Assembly (NCBI GenBank): GCA_002413425.1
Contig: DHWY01000003.1
Span: forward strand, 17,693-81,692
Direction: 5' to 3'
DNA length: 64,000 nucleotides
Source of the DNA: Candidatus Saccharibacteria bacterium UBA5170
Lineage (GTDB): Bacteria; Patescibacteriota; Saccharimonadia; Saccharimonadales; Saccharimonadaceae
Positions 3,290 through 62,691 of this stretch are shown here, one piece after another. Below the pieces are notes generated by a model that did no database searches, had not been told where the DNA came from, and saw only the letters and a program-made list of their open reading frames with translations. How positions within the stretch are numbered: position 1 is the stretch's first letter; each line of letters starts with the position of its first letter. The translations under genes and the position numbers were made by a program.

Positions 3290-4374
3290 GGTTTTAAAGC
3301 TTTCGTATAGACCTCGTGTGTCTGCTGCGCCATCCGCTGCCATGAATATTTTTTGAGTTGGGTGTAGCCTTCTTTGATCATTTCATTTCTCAACATATCG
3401 TTCGACAAGACTTCGTCAATCACCCGCGCCATATCGGTGGTGTCGCTCGGATTGAAATAGTGGGCGGCGTGACCGTAAACTTCGGGCAGGCAAGTGGCGT
3501 TGCTGCTGACCACTGGTGCGCCGTAACCCATCGCCTCTAACCCCGGGAGGCCGAAACCTTCCATCAGTGACGGAAAGACATAGGCAGCAGCCTTGGTGTA
3601 GAGCCAATCTCGTTGAGGGTCTTCAATAAAGTCAGTGAAGAGGATATTTTTGTAGTGACGCTCGGTAAAGTATTGTTCGTTTCGCAGCAGACCGGCGTTC
3701 TTTTTACCCACCAGAATTAACCCCAGGTCGGGGTATTTCTTAATCAGGCGTTGGTGAGCATCACCCAGTCGCCGAATGTTCTTGTAGTCGCTCTGCTGGC
3801 CAACGTACAATATAAAATGCTTAAACAGATGCGTGTACGGCTCAAGGGTGTCAATCGAGACATCGGCTGCCTCGTAGGTAACGGTTACTTTATTTGGCCA
3901 GATGCCGCTAAACTCAATCAGTTCTTTTTTAGTAAATTCACTAGGGGTAATAATCTGATCACTTGTTTTCGCGACTCGTTTAAAGACAAATTTACCGACC
4001 ACTTGTTTGGCGTGGAAGATGAGCCAGTTTTTGTCTGAATTATAGGTGTGAAGTAGGTTGAGGTCATGAAAAGTAGTGACTTTGGCGCCGCTATAAAAGA
4101 TCGGTTGCTGGGGCATGCAAAAGTGCACCAAATCCGGTTCCAGTTGATCGAGGAATTTTTTGAAACCGATCTGTTCGGCGAACGAATAGTTGGCAAAATC
4201 AGCCGTTTTAACGGTGAAGTTGTCGGCCGTTGGGGTCCAAAACTCTTTATCTTTGGACGGTACTAACACGGTGTAGGTATTGAGGTCATCGACTTCTTGT
4301 AGGTAATGAAGCAAGCGTTCGACGTAGCGCCCGGTTGAGGAGTTGATAATGCGGGCATCGATGACAATATGCAT
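3286..4374 (-). CDS. Glycosyltransferase, GT4 (GT-B fold)
   Basis: 362 aa with C-terminal PSLMEGFGLPGLEAMGYGAPVVSSN...E (EX7E-type GT4 motif). Confidence 0.85.
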   Translation of the reverse strand: MHIVIDARIINSSTGRYVERLLHYLQEVDDLNTYTVLVPSKDKEFWTPTADNFTVKTADFANYSFAEQIGFKKFLDQLEPDLVHFCMPQQPIFYSGAKVTTFHDLNLLHTYNSDKNWLIFHAKQVVGKFVFKRVAKTSDQIITPSEFTKKELIEFSGIWPNKVTVTYEAADVSIDTLEPYTHLFKHFILYVGQQSDYKNIRRLGDAHQRLIKKYPDLGLILVGKKNAGLLRNEQYFTERHYKNILFTDFIEDPQRDWLYTKAAAYVFPSLMEGFGLPGLEAMGYGAPVVSSNATCLPEVYGHAAHYFNPSDTTDMARVIDEVLSNDMLRNEMIKEGYTQLKKYSWQRMAQQTHEVYTKALKP

Positions 4375-7846: not shown

Positions 7847-8857
7847 CTAGCCCTTACCGGTAAACAGTTTTCGCAGCTTTCGCACACCTGTCTGATCGGG
7901 AGGTAAATCGTTCCACAGGATGCTTTTGATATATTCGGTCGTGACGCGCCTATTCTTTTGTATTTGTCCACGCTCACCGAGTTTTTTGAATCCCAGAACA
8001 AAACTCATCCCAGCGCCTTTTAGCGCCGGTACGCCGTTGCCTTTGGCGATGGCGTTAAGCAAAATGAGCCAGTAGGCGAAATAAAACCGAACACCAACAG
8101 GGAACAATAGCCCGCGGGGCATATCCTTTAGAAACAATAACGGCAGGTTCTTGAACGTATGATAGGTGGTAAAGCCAGGGATTTTTTTGCTGGTGGCGCC
8201 TTGTTTGTGGTAGGCGATAGCCTTGGGGGTATAAGCGACTTTCCAGCCCGCCAGCTGGGCCCGGAAACTGATGTCGGCGTCTTCGTAATAAGCAAAAAAA
8301 TCCTCGTCAAATAGACCGATGTCCTTGAATAAGGCGGTTTTATAGAGACTGGCACCACCGGTGGCGCCAAAGACCGGCCCGGCCTTGAATGCTTTTGCGG
8401 TGTTGTCTCCCCGATTCCTCGGAAAGGCGAGTCCCCACGATGATAACCAGTCACCGCTGCTGTCGATTGTTTTACCGTTTTCGTGAAGCAGTAAGCCGGT
8501 AGTAATACCAACTTCTTTGGGCCGAGCAGCTTCGACCAGACTCTGCAACCAGTTTTTATCCGCTATGGCGTCATTATTAAAAAGCGCTACATATTCAAAG
8601 TCTTCATTAAGCGCCCACTCAATACCGGTGTTGACGCCGCCGGCGAATCCGAAGTTGATAGGGTTATAGAGTACTTCAACTTTATCTCTGTGCTTTGTGC
8701 GGTACGATTCTAATAACTCTTTTGAATTATCAACTGATCCATTGTCGATAACGACAATATGGAAATGTTTATAACTTTGCGATAATAGGGACTCAAGACA
8801 CAATAAAGTGTCTTCAATTCCGTTCCAGTTTAATACAACAATTGCAACTCTGTTCAT
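7847..8857 (-). CDS. GT2 glycosyltransferase (rhamnosyltransferase-like)
   Basis: 336 aa. VAIVVLNWNG, VIDNGSVD and YYEDADISFR motifs. Confidence 0.85.
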   Translation of the reverse strand: MNRVAIVVLNWNGIEDTLLCLESLLSQSYKHFHIVVIDNGSVDNSKELLESYRTKHRDKVEVLYNPINFGFAGGVNTGIEWALNEDFEYVALFNNDAIADKNWLQSLVEAARPKEVGITTGLLLHENGKTIDSSGDWLSSWGLAFPRNRGDNTAKAFKAGPVFGATGGASLYKTALFKDIGLFDEDFFAYYEDADISFRAQLAGWKVAYTPKAIAYHKQGATSKKIPGFTTYHTFKNLPLLFLKDMPRGLLFPVGVRFYFAYWLILLNAIAKGNGVPALKGAGMSFVLGFKKLGERGQIQKNRRVTTEYIKSILWNDLPPDQTGVRKLRKLFTGKG

Positions 8858-8970
8858 ATATGTGTATCCATCTTATAACAAAAGCCAGTGAGCGAATAAA
8901 AAGATACCTGTTTATTTTTATTCCGAACGGCGCATTGTCATATCAATCTGGTATAATTAATTGCAGACTT

Positions 8971-18804: not shown

Positions 18805-20205
18805 TTAATGAAGTCGCATAAGCATAAGCATAAGTATATATTGTGAAACTGCAATAGAAACAATAAGACCAATTGATAAATATCTTGATTTTTTATATTT
18901 ATCCAGAATATTATCTAGTAACATATAGAAGATTAATAATAAAATTACAGAAGGCACGTAGAGTGTGCGTACACCGGATGCGTACATTGTCGGAGACAAA
19001 GTTATCATAGCTATGCTCGCAATGACGGCACAATAAAGTAACCCCAACAAGTAACCCTTAGTCTTATTTCGGTATAGAATTGCTGGTGCAATTATGGTAG
19101 TAAATAGCGCTAACGTCCACGGCAAAAATATTAGTTGCGATAGACGACTGGGTAGCTGTGGCTTCCAGGTTGCATAAAAGTTACTCCAATAACCTACCGC
19201 GATAAACCCCTTGGCTAAACTAAAAAAACAAACTAAAGTAAGCATAAATGTAATTACATAGTCAAGTTTATCCTTATTCTCCTTCTTGGCGAAAAGAGCA
19301 ATAAGTAAACCCCAGGATCCCACGAGTAAGAATCCTGTGTGGTTTACAAAAGCATCTAGCAGCCACCTGTAGCCGTAGTTGACGTGCTGTATTAATGGTG
19401 TTGTGTAAAAATCCGGAAGCCAGCGAAGTGTTTCGGCCTTAAGGCGTACACCGTTTCCAGGCGCTAGCAAACTAACGAAAAGGAATACGCAAAAAACTAT
19501 ACAAAAAATAATCATGTAGGTTGGGATTTTTTTTAAACCATGTTTGGAGGAAATAATAAATTTGTAAATGGTTAAAATAACCGATAACATCAGAAGCACA
19601 ATCCCTATTTGCTCCTGCGAACTTGCTGCGACAATGGCGCCGAGAATACCTAAGATAGTTATAGTCCAGTGTGGCGCGCGGTTCCGAACAAAATAGTACG
19701 CCACGGGATAGAACGCAACAAGCCCAAATGCCGTTATCCAAAAGTAATTCATTGATCCCGTTACCCATAATGTACCATCGAAAAATACGTTCGTATCCAT
19801 AAGCAGCGGAAGTGTCAGCGCCAGTCCTAGCATAATGTAATCCTTGCCAGAAGACTGTTTGTTGGCAAAAAGCTTATAGTATAGAAAAATGGTGCCGCTC
19901 ATTATTCCGTAAATAATCAACGACACTGCTTTCCAAAAGGCTAGTGGTATTTGGCTAAATACATAGACAAATGATTCGGAAAAGATCCTTCCGCTCCAAT
20001 TATAATAACGGTAATTTAGCCAATCTAAAACTGATGCATAGGGGTGGATCTGTATTGGGAATACCGTATCATCTGATCCCACTATCCTTATGGATAGTTT
20101 TAACAATATAGCAAACAGAATTATTCCAAGTATATATATACATATAAGGGTGAGGTTGTGTCTATACTTTTTTATCCAAGAGTAAAATACAGAGTCTTTG
20201 AGCAT
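18805..20205 (-). CDS. Polytopic membrane protein, probable GT-C-like / polysaccharide-modifying (DUF6056-like)
   Basis: 466 aa with about 12 predicted hydrophobic segments. Lies in the glycan locus. Family assignment is from memory only. Confidence 0.6.
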   Translation of the reverse strand: MLKDSVFYSWIKKYRHNLTLICIYILGIILFAILLKLSIRIVGSDDTVFPIQIHPYASVLDWLNYRYYNWSGRIFSESFVYVFSQIPLAFWKAVSLIIYGIMSGTIFLYYKLFANKQSSGKDYIMLGLALTLPLLMDTNVFFDGTLWVTGSMNYFWITAFGLVAFYPVAYYFVRNRAPHWTITILGILGAIVAASSQEQIGIVLLMLSVILTIYKFIISSKHGLKKIPTYMIIFCIVFCVFLFVSLLAPGNGVRLKAETLRWLPDFYTTPLIQHVNYGYRWLLDAFVNHTGFLLVGSWGLLIALFAKKENKDKLDYVITFMLTLVCFFSLAKGFIAVGYWSNFYATWKPQLPSRLSQLIFLPWTLALFTTIIAPAILYRNKTKGYLLGLLYCAVIASIAMITLSPTMYASGVRTLYVPSVILLLIFYMLLDNILDKYKKSRYLSIGLIVSIAVSQYILMLMLMRLH

Positions 20206-20225
20206 ACTCGGTATATATTATCACG

Positions 20226-21080
20226 CTATAGTTTTATTAGATACTTACCGTAGCCTGATTTTATCAGAGGAGTCGCTTGCTCTGCCATTTGTGCATTTGA
20301 TATGAATCCCTCCCGAAACGCAACTTCTTCGGGACTGCCGATAATTAGGCCAGTACGAGTTTGGACGACGCGGATGTAGTCGGAGGCGTCGGTCATCGAG
20401 TCGATTGTGCCGGTGTCGAGCCAGACATCGCCGCGATCGAGCGTCGTGACGGTCAGTTTGCCGCGTTTCAAGTATTCTTCGTTGACGGAAGTAATCTCGA
20501 GTTCACCACGTTCGCTGGGCTGAACGTTTTTGGCAATTTCAACAACGTCATTGTCGTAAAAATACAGGCCGACGACCGCAAAGTCAGACTTTGGTTGGCT
20601 CGGTTTTTCCTCGATGGAGATTGCCTGGTTGTTCTGGTCAAATTCAACCACTCCGTAGCGTTCGGGGTCGGAGACGCGGTAGGCAAAGACCGTGCCACCG
20701 TTTGGATTAGTACAAGTTTTAAGTGACGTGCCTAGGTCCGAACCATGGAAAATGTTATCACCTAGTACCAGCGCGACGCTATCTCCGCCGATAAACTCCT
20801 CGCCGATAATAAAGGCTTGGGCCAGACCGTCTGGTGAGGGCTGAACGGCGTAGTGCAGGCTAATACCCCACTGCGACCCATCACCTAGCAGCCGTTGGAA
20901 TTGCGACTGGTCCTCGGGCGTCGTGATAATCAGGATGTCTTTGATACCGGCCAGCATCAGGGTGGTGAGCGGGTAGTAAATCATCGGCTTGTCGTAAATT
21001 GGCATCAGCTGCTTGCTAATACCCTTGGTAATCGGCCATAGCCTCGATCCGGATCCGCCGGCTAGAATGATTCCCTTCAT
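20226..21080 (-). CDS. rmlA: Glucose-1-phosphate thymidylyltransferase
   Basis: [38 protein letters not shown], near-canonical RmlA N-terminus. 284 aa. Confidence 0.93.
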
Positions 21081-21162
21081 AGAGTACCTCGCATTAATTC
21101 TCTAAAGTGATATTGAACTTTCTACATTATATCATGACCCCAGACGAAGGTGTGTTGTGGGG

Positions 21163-21969
21163 CTAGCTATCGAAGGTATTCGGTAGCTGTAGGCGTTGTG
21201 GCGCCTCATTGTCGGTTAGATCGAATGATTCCTCGGGATTTTGCCATATATTTGGTGACGGCGAGTCGGTAAGGAGGTCGAGCGTCGTCGTGAATATTTT
21301 AAACTCGTTATACAGCTCCTTCGTAAAATTAACAATTCTTCGTTCGGTAGAGGGATTGCCAGCGATAAAGAGAACGTGGGGATAGAGCCCCGCGTTCTCT
21401 TTATCGGCAAAGTTCTCGTGTTGTCTGATGCGTTTGCGAACAAGCCAACTAAGAGTTAATGCCGGGATGAAGTCGACCAGAAATTCTGGGGCCGTCCTGT
21501 TTTTTGGAACAACGCGGAGGAGTGGCGTTGGTCGTATGAACTTGTTTCTGTCGATTTGATACTGGGTATAGTACAGGAACTCGCCTTCGTGGTGGCGACG
21601 CAAACTCAAGAGTATATATGACATCCGCAAACAGCTGTCTATCTGATCCTCGCTAAAGGATTTGTCTTTGTAGCGTTGCTTGAGCCCACTCTGTTGAGTC
21701 AATTGAAGCGCCTCAAGCGTTCGGATGCCAGCGTTACCCAGACAATAGGTTGCTGGTCTCTGGCGGATACGGAATGAAGAATTGTATTGTTTGATAACGA
21801 AGTTTTGCTGTTCTAGTACGAAAAGTCTTTCATAGATTGTTGATCGATCTTTATGTAATAGTTCTGCGAGTATGTCTGTTGTGGTAAACCGTAGTGCGTG
21901 TAGAAGAGTAAGAATTTTAATTTGATTCTGTGTAAGGTGCCATCTATATGTAGGGTTGTAGATTTTCAT
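21163..21969 (-). CDS. Winged-helix protein, replication-relaxation-family-like (mobile-element type)
   Basis: 268 aa. N-terminal LTQNQIKILTLLHALRFTTTDILAELLHKDRSTIYERLFVLEQQNFV fits the wHTH pattern of Replic_Relax proteins (recalled, not searched). AT-rich. Interrupts the rml genes. Confidence 0.45.
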   Translation of the reverse strand: MKIYNPTYRWHLTQNQIKILTLLHALRFTTTDILAELLHKDRSTIYERLFVLEQQNFVIKQYNSSFRIRQRPATYCLGNAGIRTLEALQLTQQSGLKQRYKDKSFSEDQIDSCLRMSYILLSLRRHHEGEFLYYTQYQIDRNKFIRPTPLLRVVPKNRTAPEFLVDFIPALTLSWLVRKRIRQHENFADKENAGLYPHVLFIAGNPSTERRIVNFTKELYNEFKIFTTTLDLLTDSPSPNIWQNPEESFDLTDNEAPQRLQLPNTFDS

Positions 21970-37842: not shown

Positions 37843-37943
37843 AGCCTCTCGGGTCCTGACGTCCGGTTTACCCCTAAAATTTTTATCGATTACGATCAAA
37901 CAATTTTGGGGTGGCCCCACCGGACGCCACCCGAGGCGAGGGA
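37843..37943. other. Long imperfect hairpin (~100 nt) between the hydrolase gene and the tRNA-Asn promoter
   Basis: Left arm has CTCGGGT..CGTCCGGT..CCCC.AAAATT. Right arm has AATTTTGGGG..ACCGGACG..ACCCGAG. That gives four helical segments (7+8+4+6 bp) with internal loops, and an apical ATCGATTACGAT mini-hairpin. Confidence 0.4.
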
Positions 37944-37957
37944 GTGACCAATAAACA

Positions 37958-37987
37958 TTGACTCGACTACCGAGGTAAGGGTATAAT
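37958..37987 (+). promoter_or_regulatory. Sigma-70-type promoter of tRNA-Asn
   Basis: TTGACT (37958-37963), 18-nt spacer, TATAAT (37982-37987). The tRNA starts 12 nt later. Confidence 0.6.
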
Positions 37988-37998
37988 ACTGTTTGTAT

Positions 37999-38073
37999 TC
38001 CGACGTAGCTCAATGGTGGAGCAAGAAGCTGTTAACTTCGAGGTTGCTGGTTCGAGTCCAGCCGTCGGAGCCA
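37999..38073 (+). tRNA. tRNA-Asn (anticodon GTT), CCA encoded
   Basis: Acceptor TCCGACG/CGTCGGA. D arm GCTC..GAGC. Anticodon loop CTGTTAA. T arm GCTGG TTCGAGT CCAGC. Discriminator G plus CCA. Confidence 0.93.
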
Positions 38074-38087
38074 AGCCTGGATAAATG

Positions 38088-38122
38088 AAGTCAGAACTGT
38101 TAATTCAGTTCTGACTTTTTGA
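38088..38122 (+). terminator. Intrinsic terminator after tRNA-Asn
   Basis: AGTCAGAACTG / CAGTTCTGACT stem, TTAATT loop, then TTTTTGA. Confidence 0.7.
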
Positions 38123-38276
38123 TACCCAAACTAGAGCTGAAACTAACGGTACGATTGGTTTACGGAGGCAGATTTACGCTTAGAAAGAACTAACAATTCA
38201 TTTTACCGAGTTGATGCATGGCTACACCTAATAGATGAAGTCGTTTTATAGGGCCAACGATTGTATAATACATACT

Positions 38277-39932
38277 ATGAACGAAATAACAGCCCGAGAA
38301 TTGATTTCAAATATTGAAGATGAACATACTGAACGCAAAGCAGCTCGTGGCCAGTATGATATTAAAAATGTATGTCGTTATACTGTTGCATTATCGAACG
38401 AAGGCGGCGGTCACCTTATATTAGGCGTTGATGATGCGGGTAATATTGTTGGATCACAATCTTTCCAGGACATTCAACGTCTCAAAATCGACGTACTTAG
38501 TCAGCCGAAAATGAGTAGACGAATTCGCGTTGAGGTTGATGTTTTTCAATTGGACATGAAAAGGATTGTTATTATTAGCATACCCGGACGTAATCGTGGT
38601 CAGGCTGACAGCTATGATGGTGCTTATTTGATGCGTAGCGGCGAAAGCCTCACCGGGATGAATAATGATATGATCAGGGATATTCTAGCAGAAAATGTCT
38701 CCGATTATAGTTCAGACATAATCGAGGGAGTGACGCCGTCTGATTTGGACTCTGAAGCTATTGAGAGGGCACGGTACCTATGGCTGTCAAAGTCGGGTAA
38801 TGAACAGGTGGAGATAATGACACCTGAGCAGGTGGTTCAGGGGCTGGGGCTCATAGACGAAAGGGGTGTTACCCGTGCTGGACTTATATTACTCGGAAAG
38901 TCTTCGGCTATAGCTCGCTATATACCGAATGCTGAACTTATATGGGAATATCGCCGGCACAATGCAGATGTTGAATATGTTGCCCGTAACGACCACAGGG
39001 AAGCAGTTGTATTGTATCTAGATAAGCTATGGGGTCAAATTGATGCTCGCAACGAAGTCGCCCACGTTAATGAAGGTTTCTTTATTCGTGACATACCAGC
39101 TTTTGCCGAGAGTACGATACGAGAGGCTGTTTTGAACGCAATATCACACAGAGATTATCAGGATTCAGGTTCTGTTTATATACGTCAATCAGCCGAAGAT
39201 ATGATAGTGGAAAGTCCGGGCGGTTTTATTGGTGGCATAACACCGGATAACATCATGAACGCTTCAAGTAAGCCGCGTAACCGTTTAGTCGCCGAAGTGT
39301 TCCAAAAGCTTGGCCTTGTGGAGCGGTCTGGGCAAGGTGTGGATAAAATCTTTGTAAATTCCATTTCATCGGGTAAAGGCCAGCCTAGCTATAAAGCATC
39401 CACATTGCATGAAGTAAAATTATCAGTGAGTGCTCAAGTTCAGGATGTCAGCTTTATACAGTACCTCGATAAGGTATCTAGAGAAGCTAATATTAGGCTA
39501 TCTGCATCTGACTATGTTCTGCTTGAAAAGGTTCGTCTTGGACTAATTGATTCTATAGGTCATGAAAGTGGTCTAGCTAAGCTCTCTTCTGCCGGTATTA
39601 TTGAAGGGTCTCGTAGCGGTCGCTTTACAAAGCCGATGCTAGCGAAGCGTTTTTATAGTGCGATGAACAAAAGTGGCGAGTATACACGTCAGCGAGGCTT
39701 AGATGTTCAACAAAAGAAACAGTTGATTTTGACCCATCTCCAAAACTTTCCAAAAGCTTATGTAGCGGATATTGATGAAGCTTTGGGGTATCAAGTGAAA
39801 CGCTCAACTCTAAATAATTATCTTAAAGCACTACATGAAGAGGGTAAGATCGAATTTATTGGTAACCGTCACATTGGGCGTGGTAACAATCGAGGTTACT
39901 GGACATCAAAAAAGAAAGATCTATCTAAGTAA
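38277..39932 (+). CDS. AlbA_2 (Schlafen-like) + HATPase_c_4-like + C-terminal wHTH protein (putative ATP-binding transcriptional regulator)
   Basis: Start set at MNEITARELISNIEDEHTERK. TGTATAAT at 38262-38269 lies 7 nt upstream (leaderless). The E..E..E.K opening is typical of AlbA_2. REAVLNAISHRDYQDSGSVYIRQSAEDMIVESPGGF matches the HATPase_c_4 core. Confidence 0.75.
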   Translation: MNEITARELISNIEDEHTERKAARGQYDIKNVCRYTVALSNEGGGHLILGVDDAGNIVGSQSFQDIQRLKIDVLSQPKMSRRIRVEVDVFQLDMKRIVIISIPGRNRGQADSYDGAYLMRSGESLTGMNNDMIRDILAENVSDYSSDIIEGVTPSDLDSEAIERARYLWLSKSGNEQVEIMTPEQVVQGLGLIDERGVTRAGLILLGKSSAIARYIPNAELIWEYRRHNADVEYVARNDHREAVVLYLDKLWGQIDARNEVAHVNEGFFIRDIPAFAESTIREAVLNAISHRDYQDSGSVYIRQSAEDMIVESPGGFIGGITPDNIMNASSKPRNRLVAEVFQKLGLVERSGQGVDKIFVNSISSGKGQPSYKASTLHEVKLSVSAQVQDVSFIQYLDKVSREANIRLSASDYVLLEKVRLGLIDSIGHESGLAKLSSAGIIEGSRSGRFTKPMLAKRFYSAMNKSGEYTRQRGLDVQQKKQLILTHLQNFPKAYVADIDEALGYQVKRSTLNNYLKALHEEGKIEFIGNRHIGRGNNRGYWTSKKKDLSK

Positions 39933-40298
39933 GTACATTAGATTAGACAGATACTTAGATAGTTTTGTGCTTTCGCCTCTGTAAATAACTATCTATCATT
40001 TGTGGTTTTGCATACATAGTTGAATACATACCTAAATACAGAGTAAGGTTGCATCTAATCAAAAATGTATTACTAAAGAGTAATCTAAAAGCTTAGGCTT
40101 TTTGGTTAAGAGCTAAGAATTAACTACTGATTAAATATGAGCTCATACTGAGATCATGTAATCTATTTTGATGGAATCTTATTTTAGACTTGAAGCTAAG
40201 TCTGTTTTCACTAAAGTTATAACTTCCTCTATTGTGGTGAGCCAAGCATAAGCACTATGATTTAGGTCATGGTGTTTTTGTTTGGTATGATATAGGGC

Positions 40299-40634
40299 AT
40301 GGACAAGAAAATACTTATTGTAACGATGAACGACATTCCAGGCTACGAGATAGTCGAGGTCTATGGGGAAGTTTTCGGACTCTTAGCGCGCAGTAGAAAT
40401 CTCTTCAGTACCGTGGGGGCAGGGCTAAAATCTATCGTTGGCGGTGAAATAGGTGGGTACACGAAACTTCTCACAGATAGCCGTATTGAGGCGACTGAAC
40501 GGATGAAGGAAGCGGCCGCAAAGAAGGGTGCGAACGCAATTATCGCTATGAGGTTTGATACGAGCGAAATAGGAAATAATATGAATGAAGTTGCTGCATA
40601 CGGTACGGCCGTAAAAGTTCAAAAACTCAAGTGA
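40299..40634 (+). CDS. YbjQ-family (UPF0145) protein
   Basis: 111 aa. IPGYEIVEVYGEVFG...SIVGGEIGGYTKLL...AIIAMRFD is the characteristic YbjQ pattern. TGGTATGAT -10 lies 7 nt before the ATG. Confidence 0.85.
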   Translation: MDKKILIVTMNDIPGYEIVEVYGEVFGLLARSRNLFSTVGAGLKSIVGGEIGGYTKLLTDSRIEATERMKEAAAKKGANAIIAMRFDTSEIGNNMNEVAAYGTAVKVQKLK

Positions 40635-40756
40635 AAAAAACAAAAGCTGAATTTAAAACTCATATCCCTGAACCACGATGGCAGCAAATAGTAAGTGTTA
40701 TTATTGTGATTCTTATCGCTGCGGCCGAACTACTATTTGTGTTAAAGATTCTGTAG
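40631..40756 (+). CDS. Possible 41-aa single-TM peptide, start overlapping the YbjQ-like stop (GTGA)
   Basis: Own translation VKKTKAEFKTHIPEPRWQQIVSVIIVILIAAAELLFVLKIL*. Basic N-terminus plus one hydrophobic helix. No homology evidence. Confidence 0.3.
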   Translation: MKKTKAEFKTHIPEPRWQQIVSVIIVILIAAAELLFVLKIL

Positions 40757-40774
40757 CTGATAATTTCGAAGTGC

Positions 40775-40838
40775 GACCACTAACGGGAGCCAAGATGAAT
40801 TCAAATTACAAAAAGCCATTCGATAGGATGGCTTTTTG
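40775..40838 (+). repeat. tRNA-Asn 3'-end look-alike + terminator module, unit 1
   Basis: GACC ACTAACGG GAGCCAAGA (40775-40795), then hairpin AGCCAT..ATGGCT plus TTTTTGAT. Confidence 0.6.
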
Positions 40839-40856
40839 ATTTTCTAGCTCAGTTGG

Positions 40857-41381
40857 TTACTGTCTAATTCCAGATTTGAAATCACCAGGTTGCCGACGAC
40901 CCTTCCTGTATTTACTGGGCTGGTAGCCTTCGAGATTAATTTCAACCCCAGAATCGGCTGCGTCCTTTAGAGCTTCTTCTTGATAGGCTGCTTCGTCATC
41001 GTGATAGTGGAGACCACCAGCTATAACAGCAGCTTCTGTATTAAGCTCTTCGTCGTAGTGATGGCGCTTGGCGTTCTTTAGTTGGTCCATTTTTGTCGCC
41101 TTCATTTCCTTTGCTAACTTTATTTCTTCCTTTTGATCACGTCCGTCACGACTTAGCAAGCGTAGCAGGGGCGCTCGGGAGCGGTATTTAGCGCGTTGTT
41201 CGTCAAGATACCTAGTCTCATATTCGGACGATGAGGCAGTTCTAAGAAAATCTTCAGTGGCGAATCCGCTTAACTTGTGGGCAGCTTCGTACCTATTGAA
41301 TGAATCGGCCGGAGACTCTATTCCTGCAAGATGTTCTGTTATCATTTTTTCTTTTTGTTGTTGGTATGATTCTATTGACAT
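40857..41381 (-). CDS. Hypothetical highly charged protein (174 aa)
   Basis: Long ORF with its own near-consensus leaderless promoter. No recognisable domain. Confidence 0.6.
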   Translation of the reverse strand: MSIESYQQQKEKMITEHLAGIESPADSFNRYEAAHKLSGFATEDFLRTASSSEYETRYLDEQRAKYRSRAPLLRLLSRDGRDQKEEIKLAKEMKATKMDQLKNAKRHHYDEELNTEAAVIAGGLHYHDDEAAYQEEALKDAADSGVEINLEGYQPSKYRKGRRQPGDFKSGIRQ

Positions 41382-41387
41382 ACCAAT

Positions 41388-41416
41388 ATATTAGCACAAG
41401 CTTGATAATTTGTCAA
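41388..41416 (-). promoter_or_regulatory. Leaderless promoter of the 174-aa gene
   Basis: On the minus strand: TTGACA (41416-41411), 17-nt spacer, TAATAT (41393-41388), 6 nt, ATG (41381). Confidence 0.6.
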
Positions 41417-41699
41417 CATGCCAACTACTACCCCTTGGCGCGTACACCTAGAGACCCATTACATAGACTTAACTCTGTAATTACTTAGCCATTTCACTGC
41501 TGCGGTGGCTAGCGACTTTGCCTGACACAAGAATGCTTAAGACAGCACATGTGATTGTAGACGGAAGGCTTATTGCCTTTCATTACTTTATAGAGAAAGT
41601 AAGCTTCTACTGGAAGTTGAACTTCGAGAAGAATGGTCAAGAAAATTATGTTGTTGCATCATAATCTTGAACTAATAGTTAATTAAAGTTGCGAAGTAC

Positions 41700-41759
41700 G
41701 ACCACTAGTGGGAGCCAAGATGATTATGCTTAAAGATCTTTGAACTGAAGATCTTTTTG
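41700..41759 (+). repeat. tRNA-Asn 3'-end look-alike + terminator module, unit 2
   Basis: GACC ACTAGTGG GAGCCAAGA (41700-41720), then hairpin AAAGATCTT..AAGATCTTT plus TTTTTGAT. Shares a 33-nt core with unit 1. Confidence 0.6.
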
Positions 41760-41892
41760 ATTTGTTATACTGACTTTATGCCTGAACCAGATATCATTGA
41801 CTCATCTGTACATAACAACAAGGAAGATTTAGTCATAATCCTAAAGATTATATTTGGTATCAATTTGTGGAATGGGTCGTAGGGTTATTATA

Positions 41893-42417
41893 ATGTTCCG
41901 AATACACGAATATGACACATCTTATCCGATATTATTCCAAAAAGAGAGCCAAAAATTAGCTGAAATATTAAAAGGCACCTGTCTCATCGAACATATCGGC
42001 AGCACAGCAATACCGGGCGTTGATGGCAAGGGAGTGATTGATATTATGCTTGTCTTTGATAAACCAGATGAAATTGAACCGATTATTGTATCACTTCAGC
42101 AACATGGTTATTATTTTACAGATGGCGGCGTTGATAGAAGAGATAAAGCGTTTATGTCATCGTCTGGCGAACGAGAGAGCGGTCCGGGTGATATACATCT
42201 ACACTTAGTCTCAATAGATAATCAGGATTACCCAAGGGCAATTTTGTTTCGTGATTACTTAATCCGTCATCCCAAAGCAAAACAGTCCTATGTTAATTTA
42301 AAATATGAACTATACAAAAAAGTTGCTGGTAATAGATCAGAATACACAAAATTAAAGAGTAGTTTTATAGAAAAGATCATCGCTTTAGCTCAGGATGAGA
42401 CCACGAGAATAGAGTGA
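41893..42417 (+). CDS. GrpB-family (UPF0157) nucleotidyltransferase-fold protein
   Basis: Start set at MFRIHEYDTSYPILFQKESQKL. IEHIGSTAIPGVDGKGVIDIML and HLHLV motifs are typical of GrpB. Confidence 0.8.
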   Translation: MFRIHEYDTSYPILFQKESQKLAEILKGTCLIEHIGSTAIPGVDGKGVIDIMLVFDKPDEIEPIIVSLQQHGYYFTDGGVDRRDKAFMSSSGERESGPGDIHLHLVSIDNQDYPRAILFRDYLIRHPKAKQSYVNLKYELYKKVAGNRSEYTKLKSSFIEKIIALAQDETTRIE

Positions 42418-42430
42418 GTCAAATCTCCGT

Positions 42431-42483
42431 GACCCGTATGCCGAGCCAAGAAAATTGTCAGACCTTTTAGTCTGGCATTTTTC
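42431..42483 (+). repeat. tRNA-Asn 3'-end look-alike + terminator module, unit 3
   Basis: GACC CGTATGCC GAGCCAAGA (42431-42451), then hairpin GTCAGAC..GTCTGGC plus a T-run. Confidence 0.55.
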
Positions 42484-42577
42484 ATGGCTTTATATTACGC
42501 AGAATACTTGAACTATTAGAACCCATTAGCCATTTGCCAACTATCTTTGAAAGTGTTACATTAAGTCAAAGTATCAT

Positions 42578-44527
42578 ATGAATAGAGAAACGCTTACAAA
42601 TGGGTATCACGAAGACGACCAACCCCTAGTAAGAGGTGAGATTCCTAGTGAAGAAGTACTTCAGTTATTAGCAAAGGCGCTTAATCCTTCGCTGGACACG
42701 CCTCCAGTGCTCATAGAACAGATTCTAGAAACCACTTCGCGGTGGAATAGTAAAGAGATACCTAAAGAGTTAGATTCCGTGCTTAATCGATTAGATTTTC
42801 ACCCTCGGGGAACTGCTCTTATACCGCAATTTGACACTATACCTTTCTTTAAGCGCGTAGGTGAGAAAATTGAAGTTTACAAAGATAAGCATGCCCGAAA
42901 CAGGGAGGAAAATGGCAAGTCGGAGGCTGCAGAATTTGGCGTCGGCAAAGTGGGCGACCAAGATGTCGTTGTCTACGCTATGAACTACGACTTTATGGGC
43001 GGCTCATTGTCGTCTGTTGCTGGTGAAAAGCTTTTACAAGCAATCGAGCTCGCGGAAGCGACCAAGCGGCCTTTATTAACAGTTTATTCGTCTGGTGGAG
43101 CACGACAAGACGAAAACGGTAGGGCGTTATACCAAATGGAACGTGGTGTAGTCGGCTTGGAGGTTTTAAAAGAAAAAGCTCCTAACGTACCGAATATTGC
43201 TATTTTACTTGGAGAAGTTTGGGGTGGAGTCACCGCCAGTTCTATGCCACGAGCAGATTTACGCGTCGCCTACACCGGCACCCGTATGGGATTTGCTGGT
43301 GGCCGCGTTATCGCAGCCCATGAGGGCTCTGAAGTGTCTGAAAGTGCTCAGCGGGTAGAAGTGCATGCTCTTCAGCGTAACGTTGACGTTCTGGTACGTA
43401 ATACCGATGAATTAATGAATCATCTGACGGCATTTTTTGCGAATTATTCACAACCTTCAACAAGATTTGAACCCAGTCTCATTCCCCCTACACACGTTGT
43501 GGGACCAGATGGAGACCAACGGCATTTCCGTTTGTCTGACCATGTCGTAGCCCCAGCGTTGTACAAAGATGATCTTAAAGGCGCTCCAGTCGTCGCTTCT
43601 ATGCGATTACGGACTGAGCGCGCTATCATGACACTATTTAACTCAGAACTGGCCGCTGGCAAAACTGAAGCAGAAGCCCGCAAAGCCGCAGAGGGTCAAA
43701 TGCTAACCGATCGTTATAGAAATCTACTTTTCGATGTGGCGCGACCTGATACCGAAATGATTTTACAACAAGCTTTCCAAGACGTAGTGCCACTGTATAA
43801 TCATTTTTACGATAAGGAACGTGGTGAATATGTATATCCCCCGATTATCGCAGGAATTGGCCGTATCGGTTTGCAAGCGTTTATGGTAGCAGGAAACCAA
43901 CCATCATATCGTGTCGTTGATAGTGAAGTCTCAAAAATACTTTCTACGCCAAAACCCGCCGACCTCAAATACCTATTACGAACACTTAATCTTGGAGATA
44001 GGTTGCAATTACCGCTCGTGCTGCTCACGGATACCCCAGGCGCTGAACCATCTTTAGACTCAGAGCTACAGGGGCAGTTTGAAGACATTGCAAACGTTCT
44101 AGCTCGCTATCATAAATACGGCAAGCCGATTATGAGTATTGTGACGGGCTTACAGGGAAGTGGAGGTGGATTAGTGACTTCTCCTCGTGGTGATTCGTTG
44201 GCGGTACTCAGCAAAGGACTTATGACTGTAGCAGAGCCAGGGGCAGCCTCGGTAATTGTCTATGGGGCTAACGCTACACACCAAAACCGCACGGATACTA
44301 TTTTGGCGCTTAGCCCAAGCAGTGAGATGCAGCGTAAAATTGGGTTGGTAGACGCCGTTATCCCAGAAGCAGACAACCCGTATGAAACTATTGCAGCAAT
44401 CAGAGAACATATTATCAAAACTTATGGTCGGCTTGCGCTTATTAAATCCAGTAAGTTACTCGCAGATCGCTGGAATGTCCGCTTGCGTGATGCCAAGCCT
44501 TTTAAGGTATCAGAATCGGGGTTCTAA
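42578..44527 (+). CDS. Fused acetyl-CoA carboxylase-type carboxyltransferase, beta (AccD-like) + alpha (AccA-like) halves
   Basis: 649 aa. N-terminal half: YDFMGGSLSSVAGEKLLQAIELAEATKRPLLTVYSSGGARQ (AccD FMGGSMG...SGGARMQ pattern) without the AccD zinc ribbon. C-terminal half: LPLVLLTDTPGAEPSLDSELQGQFEDIANVL...IVTGLQGSGGGL (AccA IDTPGAYPG...GEGGSGGAL pattern). Confidence 0.85.
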   Translation: MNRETLTNGYHEDDQPLVRGEIPSEEVLQLLAKALNPSLDTPPVLIEQILETTSRWNSKEIPKELDSVLNRLDFHPRGTALIPQFDTIPFFKRVGEKIEVYKDKHARNREENGKSEAAEFGVGKVGDQDVVVYAMNYDFMGGSLSSVAGEKLLQAIELAEATKRPLLTVYSSGGARQDENGRALYQMERGVVGLEVLKEKAPNVPNIAILLGEVWGGVTASSMPRADLRVAYTGTRMGFAGGRVIAAHEGSEVSESAQRVEVHALQRNVDVLVRNTDELMNHLTAFFANYSQPSTRFEPSLIPPTHVVGPDGDQRHFRLSDHVVAPALYKDDLKGAPVVASMRLRTERAIMTLFNSELAAGKTEAEARKAAEGQMLTDRYRNLLFDVARPDTEMILQQAFQDVVPLYNHFYDKERGEYVYPPIIAGIGRIGLQAFMVAGNQPSYRVVDSEVSKILSTPKPADLKYLLRTLNLGDRLQLPLVLLTDTPGAEPSLDSELQGQFEDIANVLARYHKYGKPIMSIVTGLQGSGGGLVTSPRGDSLAVLSKGLMTVAEPGAASVIVYGANATHQNRTDTILALSPSSEMQRKIGLVDAVIPEADNPYETIAAIREHIIKTYGRLALIKSSKLLADRWNVRLRDAKPFKVSESGF

Positions 44528-44535
44528 AAATTCAA

Positions 44536-44596
44536 GACCCGCGTACTGAGCCAAACAGGAGCATCATAAGAAGACCTTCCTAGGAAGTCCTTTTGT
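44536..44596 (+). repeat. tRNA-Asn 3'-end look-alike + terminator module, unit 4 (most diverged)
   Basis: GACC CGCGTACT GAGCCAAAC (44536-44556), then interrupted hairpin around the palindrome CTTCCTAGGAAG plus TTTTG. Confidence 0.5.
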
Positions 44597-49870: not shown

Positions 49871-49906
49871 AAACACCCCAAGGCACCGGGGTGTTTTTGC
49901 TTTTTT
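49871..49906. terminator. Bidirectional intrinsic terminator
   Basis: AAACACCCC / GGGGTGTTT stem followed by TTGCTTTTTT. A-run on the other side serves the convergent DsbA-like gene. Confidence 0.65.
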
Positions 49907-62384: not shown

Positions 62385-62463
<79 letters not shown>

Positions 62464-62691
62464 GAAAATTCCCTCAGTCCAATGACTGGGGGACTTTTCT
62501 TACGCTGCGCGTGTAAAATTCAAACCTGCGACTATCGCCAGACGAGCTGGCGAGTCGTAGGTATCGTCTCGCCTTTGGCGCGACTCCTCCGCTTGTTCGC
62601 AAAATGAGCAAGCTAATTTTGCCACACTGCGCTCCGCCAAATCCTGCCCCGAAGTATCTATTCGAAGGCATGAGCGTTATAATAAACGATT

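Follow-up and report, generated by a model that had tools for sequence, protein, structure and literature searches.

The window analyzed here, a 64,000-nucleotide (nt) stretch of contig DHWY01000003.1 from Candidatus Saccharibacteria bacterium UBA5170, contains a tRNA-Asn(GTT) gene followed by a row of five short gene cassettes. The tRNA occupies 37999 to 38073 on the plus strand, with its feature extending to 38075 (ARAGORN; Rfam tRNA, 65 bits), and it has an encoded CCA, then AG. The cassettes (2171, 548, 925, 731, and 2104 nt) make up window 38076-44554, and each closes in a short unit, W0 to W4, that resembles the 3′ end of the tRNA. The window sequence also occurs in GCA_002405365.1 (contig DHLR01000008.1) and in many JGI, ENA, and Logan assemblies, with strain-level identical sequence in more than 15 independent assemblies from JGI, ENA, NCBI, and Logan. 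In the genome collection, the purA genes nearest to that of the window belong to metagenome-assembled genomes of Saccharibacteria. We examined ~85 kb of this genome and compared the window with loci or contigs from other metagenome-derived assemblies (L009 to L089). A preliminary description of the window had recognized four units besides the tRNA end. All four are real, but W0 (40206-40246) had been overlooked; since W0 parts the AlbA_2 gene from YbjQ, the four blocks proposed there are replaced by five cassettes.

Cassette 1 (38076-40246, plus strand), delimited by Pfam, hairpin prediction, and a type II hidden Markov model (HMM), begins directly after tRNA-Asn with terminator module B, a hairpin at 38089-38116 plus a T-run. 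A TATAAT lies at 38264-38269, the AlbA_2/HATPase_c_4 gene runs from 38277 (or 38235) to 39932 on the plus strand (Pfam), and the cassette closes in W0, a plus-strand type II unit with the sequence TTAAAGTTATAACTTCCTCTATTGTGGTGAGCCAAG (type II HMM, E = 2.5e-12). W0 ends in ...ACTTCCTCTATTGTGGTGAGCCAAG and is followed by a hairpin at 40250-40277 plus a T-run. This is terminator module A, with which cassette 2 opens (40247-40794, plus strand). Cassette 2 has an extended -10-like TGgTATGAT (40283-40291), YbjQ (40299-40634, plus strand; Pfam), a 41-codon membrane-like open reading frame (ORF) overlapping YbjQ (40631-40756), and, at its end, the type I unit W1 (40760-40794, plus strand). Cassette 3 (40795-41719, plus strand) comprises a bidirectional hairpin (40811-40836), a minus-strand gene for a 174-amino-acid charged protein without a family match (40857-41381), a 43-codon ORF (41533-41664), and the closing type I unit W2 (41685-41719, plus strand). 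Cassette 4 (41720-42450, plus strand) has a TTATGCTTAAA box at 41726-41736, a hairpin at ~41732-41756 plus a T-run, GrpB from 41893 (or 41854) to 42417 on the plus strand (Pfam), and the type III unit W3 (42414-42450, plus strand; type III HMM, E = 5.7e-7). Cassette 5 (42451-44554, plus strand) opens with a hairpin at 42456-42477 plus a T-run, carries a fused AccD/AccA-like carboxyltransferase (42578-44527, plus strand; Pfam), and ends in W4, a divergent type III-like unit (44518-44554, plus strand; E = 4e-5) that reads GAGCCAA and then AC; a weak hairpin lies 3′ of it (~44576-44592). The cargo assignments of the preliminary description (AlbA_2/HATPase_c_4, YbjQ, GrpB, and the fused carboxyltransferase, along with purA) were correct.

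A terminator-like hairpin plus T-run was detected after tRNA-Asn and after W0 to W3. The earlier claim that one follows every unit has no folding support at W4 and marginal support at W2 and W3, according to the z scores of the downstream 60 nt (tRNA, -6.0; W0, -2.3; W1, -4.0; W2, -1.7; W3, -1.3; W4, -0.2). The -10-like hexamers at 38264-38269 and 40286-40291 lie ~7 nt 5′ of an ATG, with no Shine-Dalgarno sequence. At L035 2783-2830 and in several related loci, a terminator hairpin sits within the spacer of TTGACW...TAWTTT pairs, so that terminator and promoter overlap. This organization suggests that the cassettes are compact, partly leaderless expression units.

The resemblance of the units to the tRNA end is far from what base composition would produce. 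The final 8 nt of tRNA-Asn, GAGCCAAG (38068-38075), occur five times in the 64 kb, all on the plus strand and all within 38068-42450, where 1.5 copies are expected; only 1 of 100 shuffles reaches five. The copies beyond the tRNA start at 40239, 40787, 41712, and 42443, and GAGCCAA recurs at 44548. The longer pattern first reported, GWCCNNNNNNNNGAGCCAA (GWCC-N8-GAGCCAA), has exactly five plus-strand matches, at 38056, 40775, 41700, 42431, and 44536, as originally located; these span 38056-44554, and shuffled sequences gave a mean of 0.03 and never five. The stretch is also AT-rich, as had been noted, with a GC content of 0.40 to 0.44 over 38-43 kb versus 0.52 to 0.54 upstream. However, the GWCC-N8 skeleton is not itself the conserved feature: the units form three different families, and the only part they have in common is the 3′ GAGCCA(AG).

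W1 and W2 belong to type I. They share the longer core that had been noticed for them, at 88.6% identity over 35 nt (nhmmer E values of 2e-10 and 2e-11), and a metagenome scan with this core returned 31 loci, including ~16 AT-rich Saccharibacteria-like contigs. In those contigs the core again lies between a stop codon and a hairpin plus T-run, and profile searches show several same-strand units per contig between small unrelated genes, including in the metagenome-assembled genome (MAG) UBA5145 (L021, which is the same array as L083). The type I consensus is AAGTTGCGAAGTRCGACCASTAGNGGGAGCCA, with 30 distinct copies and many invariant columns. Type II, with the consensus AGTTATAACTTCCTCTATYGTGGTGAGCCA, is represented in the window by W0 and found also in L058, L035, L033 (twice), L051, L054, and L087. 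Type III, with the consensus TCCGTGACCNGTRTGCYGAGCCA, includes W3 and, more loosely, W4. Types II and III, as well as the Met type described below, recur across genomes, and unit families recur in unrelated projects.

The units are ~34 nt long, and their identity with the tRNA that heads the array is confined to the final 8 to 9 nt. In types I and II and in the Met type, a T-loop-like GTT box stands 29 to 30 nt before the final CCA, compared to 24 nt from the T-loop GTTC to the CCA in the tRNAs. The units thus mimic a tRNA 3′ half with a spacer that is 5 to 6 nt longer. They are members of conserved element families and not decaying tRNA copies, because their non-tRNA 5′ parts are kept across species and many columns are invariant among the 30 type I units. 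One and the same unit type can flank unrelated cargo, and unit types combine freely with downstream terminator modules across loci: module B is seen behind the tRNA, behind type I, and behind a further unit type, and module A is seen behind the tRNA and behind both type I and type II units.

Within the window, no unit lies outside the tRNA-Asn array, and all are on the strand of the tRNA; in related loci they occupy one strand per locus. HMMs of all unit types found nothing more in the window, nor in the adjoining loci L063 and L066, and the other terminator-like hairpins of the window outside the two tRNA loci have no unit, which argues against a generic terminator-associated motif. The lone additional flag, at 49896 on the minus strand, is a CAACCA inside a coding region. 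A dispersed repeat of the repetitive extragenic palindrome or miniature inverted-repeat transposable element type was considered and failed, since over the ~85 kb covered the units are confined to the array and have a single orientation.

Comparison with relatives places the breakpoints on the same 8 to 9 nt. In L058, positions 990-1097 correspond to window 37969-38076 (98% over 108 nt) and positions 1089-1143 to window 40239-40293 (94.5%). After ...GGAGCCAAG of tRNA-Asn, the sequence downstream of W0 (window 40247 on) follows directly, and the two alignments overlap in GAGCCAAGC only. Relative to L058, therefore, cassette 1 of the window (38076-40246) is an insertion located precisely at the core. 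The window's tRNA-Asn terminator (38067-38144) is found in L058 directly after a type I unit (3798-3875), where it heads a cassette that has a different gene but keeps the type II end; in L054 this terminator again stands behind tRNA-Asn, and in L033 it stands behind another type of unit. L036 and L058 are 100% identical through ...GGGAGCCA and then carry unrelated cassettes of 690 and 887 nt, with a minus-strand gene and an EEP-family gene, respectively; 94.5% identity resumes right after ...GAGCCAAG. We read this difference as a cassette swap with GAGCCA at both borders.

L083 and L087 represent two species whose core flanks are ~80% identical, and their arrays extend from tRNA-Asn to before purA. 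Some cassettes are common to both but stand at different positions, and others differ; a common His_Phos cassette has 89% nucleotide identity, compared to ~80% for the core. The window, L083, and L087 share the tRNA-Asn to purA frame with different or reordered cassettes. The array starts at tRNA-Asn in six of the six genomes with a visible start (window, L058, L035/L056, L054, L083, and L087), and cassette content behind the tRNA varies among the window, L058, L035, L083, and L087. Both tRNA-Asn and the tRNA-Met described below are intact, with indels starting right after ...CCAAG. Thus, relatives differ by gain, loss, and replacement bounded by units, rather than showing a fixed gene order. 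At the close of its first cassette, L083 has a genuine tRNA-end copy of greater length (15 nt, CTTTCCCCGGAGCCA).

Two independent assemblies, L016 and L020, end at window 38075/38076, the 3′ end of tRNA-Asn. Contig breaks at this point are expected if populations hold alternative continuations after the tRNA, an indirect hint. Other contig edges of independent assemblies also lie around the tRNA-Asn 3′ end: L075 starts at window 38047 and L074 at 38108. On the other side of the tRNA, between a beta-lactamase-like gene and the tRNA-Asn promoter, is a long GC-rich imperfect palindrome with an AT-rich loop (window 37848-37945). An Rfam scan of 36-47 kb with E values up to 10 gave the tRNA alone, with no other family at gathering score.

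A second array, at a different tRNA, provides independent support. The window contains a tRNA-Met(CAT) gene ending in ...GCAACCAAG (62385-62462, feature to 62464, plus strand; ARAGORN), whose terminator (62468-62495) follows directly, i.e., this second anchor site is empty in the window strain. The alignment of L065 with the window runs to 62464 and resumes at 62456, and the segment in between holds three cassettes, whose genes are a GC-rich one on the minus strand, a His_Phos_1 gene, and an alpha/beta hydrolase gene. Each cassette opens with a hairpin plus T-run and closes in ATTAAGTTCCAAT-N-CYTGGGCAACCAAG, i.e., ...TGGGCAACCAAG. In L065, GCAACCAAG, which is the final 9 nt of tRNA-Met, recurs three times. 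The units therefore end like whichever tRNA heads the array, as predicted if they are attachment (att) sites; readings of the units as RNA tags or generic terminator motifs make no such prediction.

Altogether, we think it probable that window 38076-44554 is a mobile array of five cassettes anchored at the 3′ end of tRNA-Asn, in which att-like sites are acted on by a recombinase supplied in trans. The confinement of the motif to the array, the unit-bounded variation, the exclusion of chance, and the tRNA-Met array all speak for the serial insertion at tRNA-Asn and the integron-style organization that the preliminary description had proposed. Each cassette has the layout of a self-contained transcription unit: an intrinsic terminator of its own, by which the tRNA or the cassette before it is closed off, then a promoter-like box followed by one or two ORFs, and finally a unit of ~34 nt. 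This unit opens with the T-loop-like GTT box and ends 29 to 30 nt later in the last 8 to 9 nt of the anchor tRNA (GAGCCA(AG) for tRNA-Asn, GCAACCAAG for tRNA-Met), and together with the start of the next module it would form the att site. The final 8 nt of tRNA-Asn would be the anchor, comparable to attB or attI. We infer that a recombinase encoded elsewhere crosses such a site with the tRNA end or with a resident unit, within or right after ...GAGCCA, and that cassettes could in this way enter the array, leave it (presumably as circles), replace one another, and change their order, with no damage to the tRNA. The tRNA would never be disrupted because the crossover would lie at its extreme 3′ end, and the tRNA or preceding cassette would always regain a terminator because each cassette begins with one.

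Recombinases were sought widely. Precomputed Pfam annotation shows no integrase, resolvase, or transposase among the called genes of window 966-21868 and 26094-64000 and of 5.7 kb past the window end, and our own scans of the gap between the two stretches found none either. No recombinase domain was found in the cassette proteins of the window (Pfam and NCBIfam), no recombinase family in L083 from 9 kb upstream of tRNA-Asn through purA, and no recombinase in L087 or among the ORFs of L021, L033, L034, L041, L050, L051, L055, L056, L058, and L065. These Pfam and NCBIfam scans covered ~50 ORFs of the window and related loci. The lack of an integrase described earlier thus stands from ~1 kb to the end of the window and at all of the array-bearing loci surveyed. 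In scans of viral contigs, neither the tRNA-Asn 3′ end nor any of three unit queries (type I core, type II, and Met type) gave a match, and this route therefore yielded neither an attP of a phage or plasmid nor an integrase linked to one.

Several observations weigh against a mobile array. Neither a recombinase, nor a circular cassette, nor an empty-site read was found. Because every comparison pairs metagenome contigs from different strains or species, the events are deduced rather than observed, and none was caught within one strain; look-ups of exact proteins (purA, beta-lactamase-like, YbjQ, and GrpB) returned one gene order, from the same strain. The comparison at tRNA-Met is similarly complicated. 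L065 is 99.6% identical to the window strain left of the tRNA (boundary at window 62464, L065 13985) but ~84% to its right, for >4 kb (17036-21215), so its right part comes from a more distant relative or species or from a chimeric join, and the tRNA may mark either a recombination boundary or a chimera. The exact indel stands, but it is not a within-strain polymorphism. The units themselves do not always conform: in L083 some lack the CCA (GAGCCG, GAGCTG, and GAGCCC), and the hairpin after W4 is weak, without folding support (z = -0.2). In L041, a 12.9-kb contig without a tRNA, units stand on both sides of an 8-kb housekeeping block (leucyl-tRNA synthetase and others); therefore, units are not always in a simple tRNA-proximal array. 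Two units on the reverse strand of L041, at ~2030-2048 and ~11455-11475, read ...GGAGCCAAACCAAG, an Asn-type core running into a Met-type ACCAAG, and look as if Asn-type and Met-type sites had been joined.

Which enzyme might act on the junctions? One possibility within the reading as a mobile array, which we consider unlikely, is that the junctions are dif-like sites at which cassettes exploit the host Xer recombinase(s), like the integrative mobile elements exploiting Xer (IMEX) and the Acinetobacter pdif modules. Use of a host Xer enzyme would explain the absence of a dedicated integrase. A TTATGYTTAAA box follows exactly 6 nt after ...CCA in ~9 junctions (window 41726-41736, L033, L041, L044, L051, L065, L083 twice, and L087), and it matches 9 of 11 positions of the XerD arm, which we take to be TTATGTTAAAT; this is dif-like spacing, and the inferred crossover would fall at the border of arm and central region. 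However, such boxes are not enriched in the window (26 found, 28 expected), most junctions, including that of the tRNA itself, have none, and those with the box belong to one homologous family of terminator modules, so they are not independent. The left arm (...GGGAGCCA) is also unlike known XerC arms. The dif/Xer similarity is thus a weak lead on the enzyme.

How else might such an array arise? One improbable alternative is that the array is debris of integrase-carrying islands, prophages, or tycheposon-like elements, each of which inserted at tRNA-Asn, left a partial-tRNA attR behind, and has since lost its integrase along with most of its genes, so that all are now immobile. There is precedent in Prochlorococcus, whose islands integrate at tRNA 3′ ends, leave a partial tRNA repeat, and accrete in tandem with scattered partial tRNAs (https://doi.org/10.1101/2020.12.28.424599). 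The 15-nt true tRNA-end copy in L083 and the missing integrase would fit such debris. Yet decaying remnants would not be expected to keep non-tRNA 5′ unit parts across species, with invariant columns in 30 type I units, or to place the same unit type beside unrelated cargo. The cassettes are single-gene, 0.2 to 2.2 kb long, and each has its own terminator; no integrase or fragment of one was seen in any array; and between two species the nucleotide identity of the His_Phos cassette, 89%, exceeds the ~80% of the core around it.

Less probable still is that the units act as RNA, i.e., that they are 3′-untranslated region (UTR) elements such as a tRNA-like tag or a binding or processing site, with the variation between strains arising by homologous recombination or transformation. 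It is true that every unit is preceded by a stop codon, is followed by a terminator, and shares the coding strand of most cargo genes, and Saccharibacteria are naturally transformable. The preliminary description had likewise offered a tag for RNase P/Z or the CCA-adding enzyme, but this finds no support in RNA folding: the 40 nt ending at the core do not fold (z scores of -0.3 to +1.9), the sole plausible hairpin among the 30 distinct type I units lacks compensatory changes and pairs worse than column shuffles, and the RNAalifold consensus of type I is -0.7 kcal/mol with no covariation. An RNA mini-helix or T-arm is rejected on the same results. In addition, the main gene of some cassettes is antisense (40857-41381; L065 14219-14863; L036), and there the unit is not its 3′ UTR. 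A 3′-UTR role would also leave unexplained why unit ends match the heading tRNA and how partners sharing just 8 to 9 nt are joined; homology of this length is too short for RecA-type exchange.

In favor of an RNA role are cassettes that have no ORF. These are found at L083 9441-9625 and 10443-10625 and at L087 ~8011-8200 and ~8867-9056, with none in the window, and consist of a terminator and a GC-rich element of ~145 nt. The ends of this element pair like an acceptor stem, leaving ...CCA at the 3′ end, and the tRNA-Asn T-arm is present in two copies, one inverted and one direct, that make up two long internal hairpins. Although only four copies of the element can be compared, 9 of its 44 predicted pairs covary; Rfam gave no match. 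The element could represent a small RNA that resembles a tRNA or, alternatively, a recombination site with secondary structure.

Other candidate explanations for parts of the units did not hold up. A GGGAG...ATG in W1 and W2, considered as a ribosome-binding site and start of 7- to 14-codon ORFs, is missing from other units; a LexA (Cheo) box lacks its second half-site; and the hairpins after the junctions are mutually unrelated, unlike IS200/IS605-type ends. Finally, the pattern was defined after being seen and the related data are all metagenome assemblies, but chance resemblance or an assembly artifact is extremely improbable given 5 matches where 0.03 are expected, more than 15 independent assemblies, and unit families in unrelated projects.

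The array at tRNA-Asn has much in common with integrons, including sedentary chromosomal integrons with near-identical attC repeats such as the Vibrio cholerae repeats: cassettes in tandem that all point the same way, mostly with a single ORF, unrelated in cargo, and each ending in a site-like repeat; repeat families common to unrelated cassettes; variable content on a fixed platform; and ORF-less cassettes (L083 9441-9625). Integron attC sites are imperfect palindromes of 57 to 141 bp, with RYYYAAC ... GTTRRRY boxes, that fold as single strands. In contrast, the units here are ~34 nt and unstructured, with no R″/L″-L′/R′ palindrome and no GTTRRRY core read at the junctions. The array also has no adjacent intI, its anchor is a tRNA 3′ end rather than attI, and its cassettes have their own terminator and predicted promoter-like boxes instead of depending on a common Pc.

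Similarities to tRNA-targeted elements and accretion islands are equally apparent. Insertion occurs at the 3′ end of a tRNA that stays intact, and the tRNA end recurs as a direct repeat at the distal border of the insert. When one tRNA is used again and again, older inserts are displaced outward, and integrase-less members are presumed to be moved in trans; cis-mobilizable elements (CIMEs) are a further tRNA-targeted comparison. The inserts here differ in being single-gene and 0.2 to 2.2 kb rather than multi-kilobase with integration and replication modules, in having no integrase or remnant, in having only 8 to 9 nt of tRNA identity with the rest of the unit belonging to its own families, and in placing the terminator first. 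IMEX elements and pdif modules are integrase-less modules that use host XerC/XerD at dif-like sites of 28 bp (an 11-nt XerC arm, a 6-nt center, and an 11-nt XerD arm), and pdif sites alternate in orientation. Small recombinase-less modules in series, short conserved borders, and the XerD-like box at a subset of junctions recall these systems. However, the target here is a tRNA end and not dif, all sites are direct, the left arm is unlike XerC, and the box is mostly absent. In the literature searched (full text), we found no description of such arrays in Saccharibacteria or Patescibacteria.

The cargo across arrays includes an AlbA_2/Schlafen-type protein, NUDIX, GNAT, methyltransferases, phosphatases, heliorhodopsin, and the carboxyltransferase, along with a weak, sub-threshold match to a type VI secretion system immunity domain (Tdi1). 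This suggests roles in defense, host interaction, and metabolic patching. A homolog of the fused carboxyltransferase in L021 (80% amino acid identity) lies 4 kb downstream of purA, and its unit is decayed. In L009 (2058-3983, equivalent to window 42578-44527), the carboxyltransferase is split into three ORFs in a locus that is 99.4% identical with two gaps, either a frameshifted variant or an assembly error. GrpB homologs are at most 61% identical and occur without units in other lineages of the Candidate Phyla Radiation (CPR), which is uninformative on the mobility of the GrpB cassette. In one unrelated CPR contig without units (L089 9001-9604), a GrpB homolog converges with a tRNA-Gln gene and stops 26 nt short of its 3′ end. 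Homologs of the GC-rich, 214-amino-acid cassette protein of L065 were sought as a possible host-derived gene, and only three anonymous matches were found. Elsewhere in the window, a 268-amino-acid ORF at 21163-21969 (minus strand), at the edge of an AT-rich glycosyltransferase region, has sub-threshold matches to Replic_Relax and MarR/TrmB winged-helix domains.

Is this a general system? We give about even odds to the broader proposal that Saccharibacteria have a gene capture platform analogous to integrons, with docking at tRNA 3′ ends, terminator-promoter-gene cassettes, tRNA-matched units, and a recombinase encoded elsewhere in the genome, possibly a housekeeping Xer-type enzyme or a new family. 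If so, the integron concept would be widened beyond IntI/attC, and tRNA-end integration would work gene by gene without a resident integrase. The ~34-nt units can serve as a marker when this lineage is searched for its flexible genes, and genetic tools for those few Saccharibacteria that can be cultivated might use the junction of unit and terminator as a landing pad. In CPR bacteria, Saccharibacteria among them, genomes are tiny and contain few mobile elements that can be recognized, yet strains differ strongly in their accessory genes. A fixed, tRNA-anchored swap site would be a concrete mechanism for that variation and, if the proposal is true, a main route of accessory-gene exchange among these reduced-genome epibionts.

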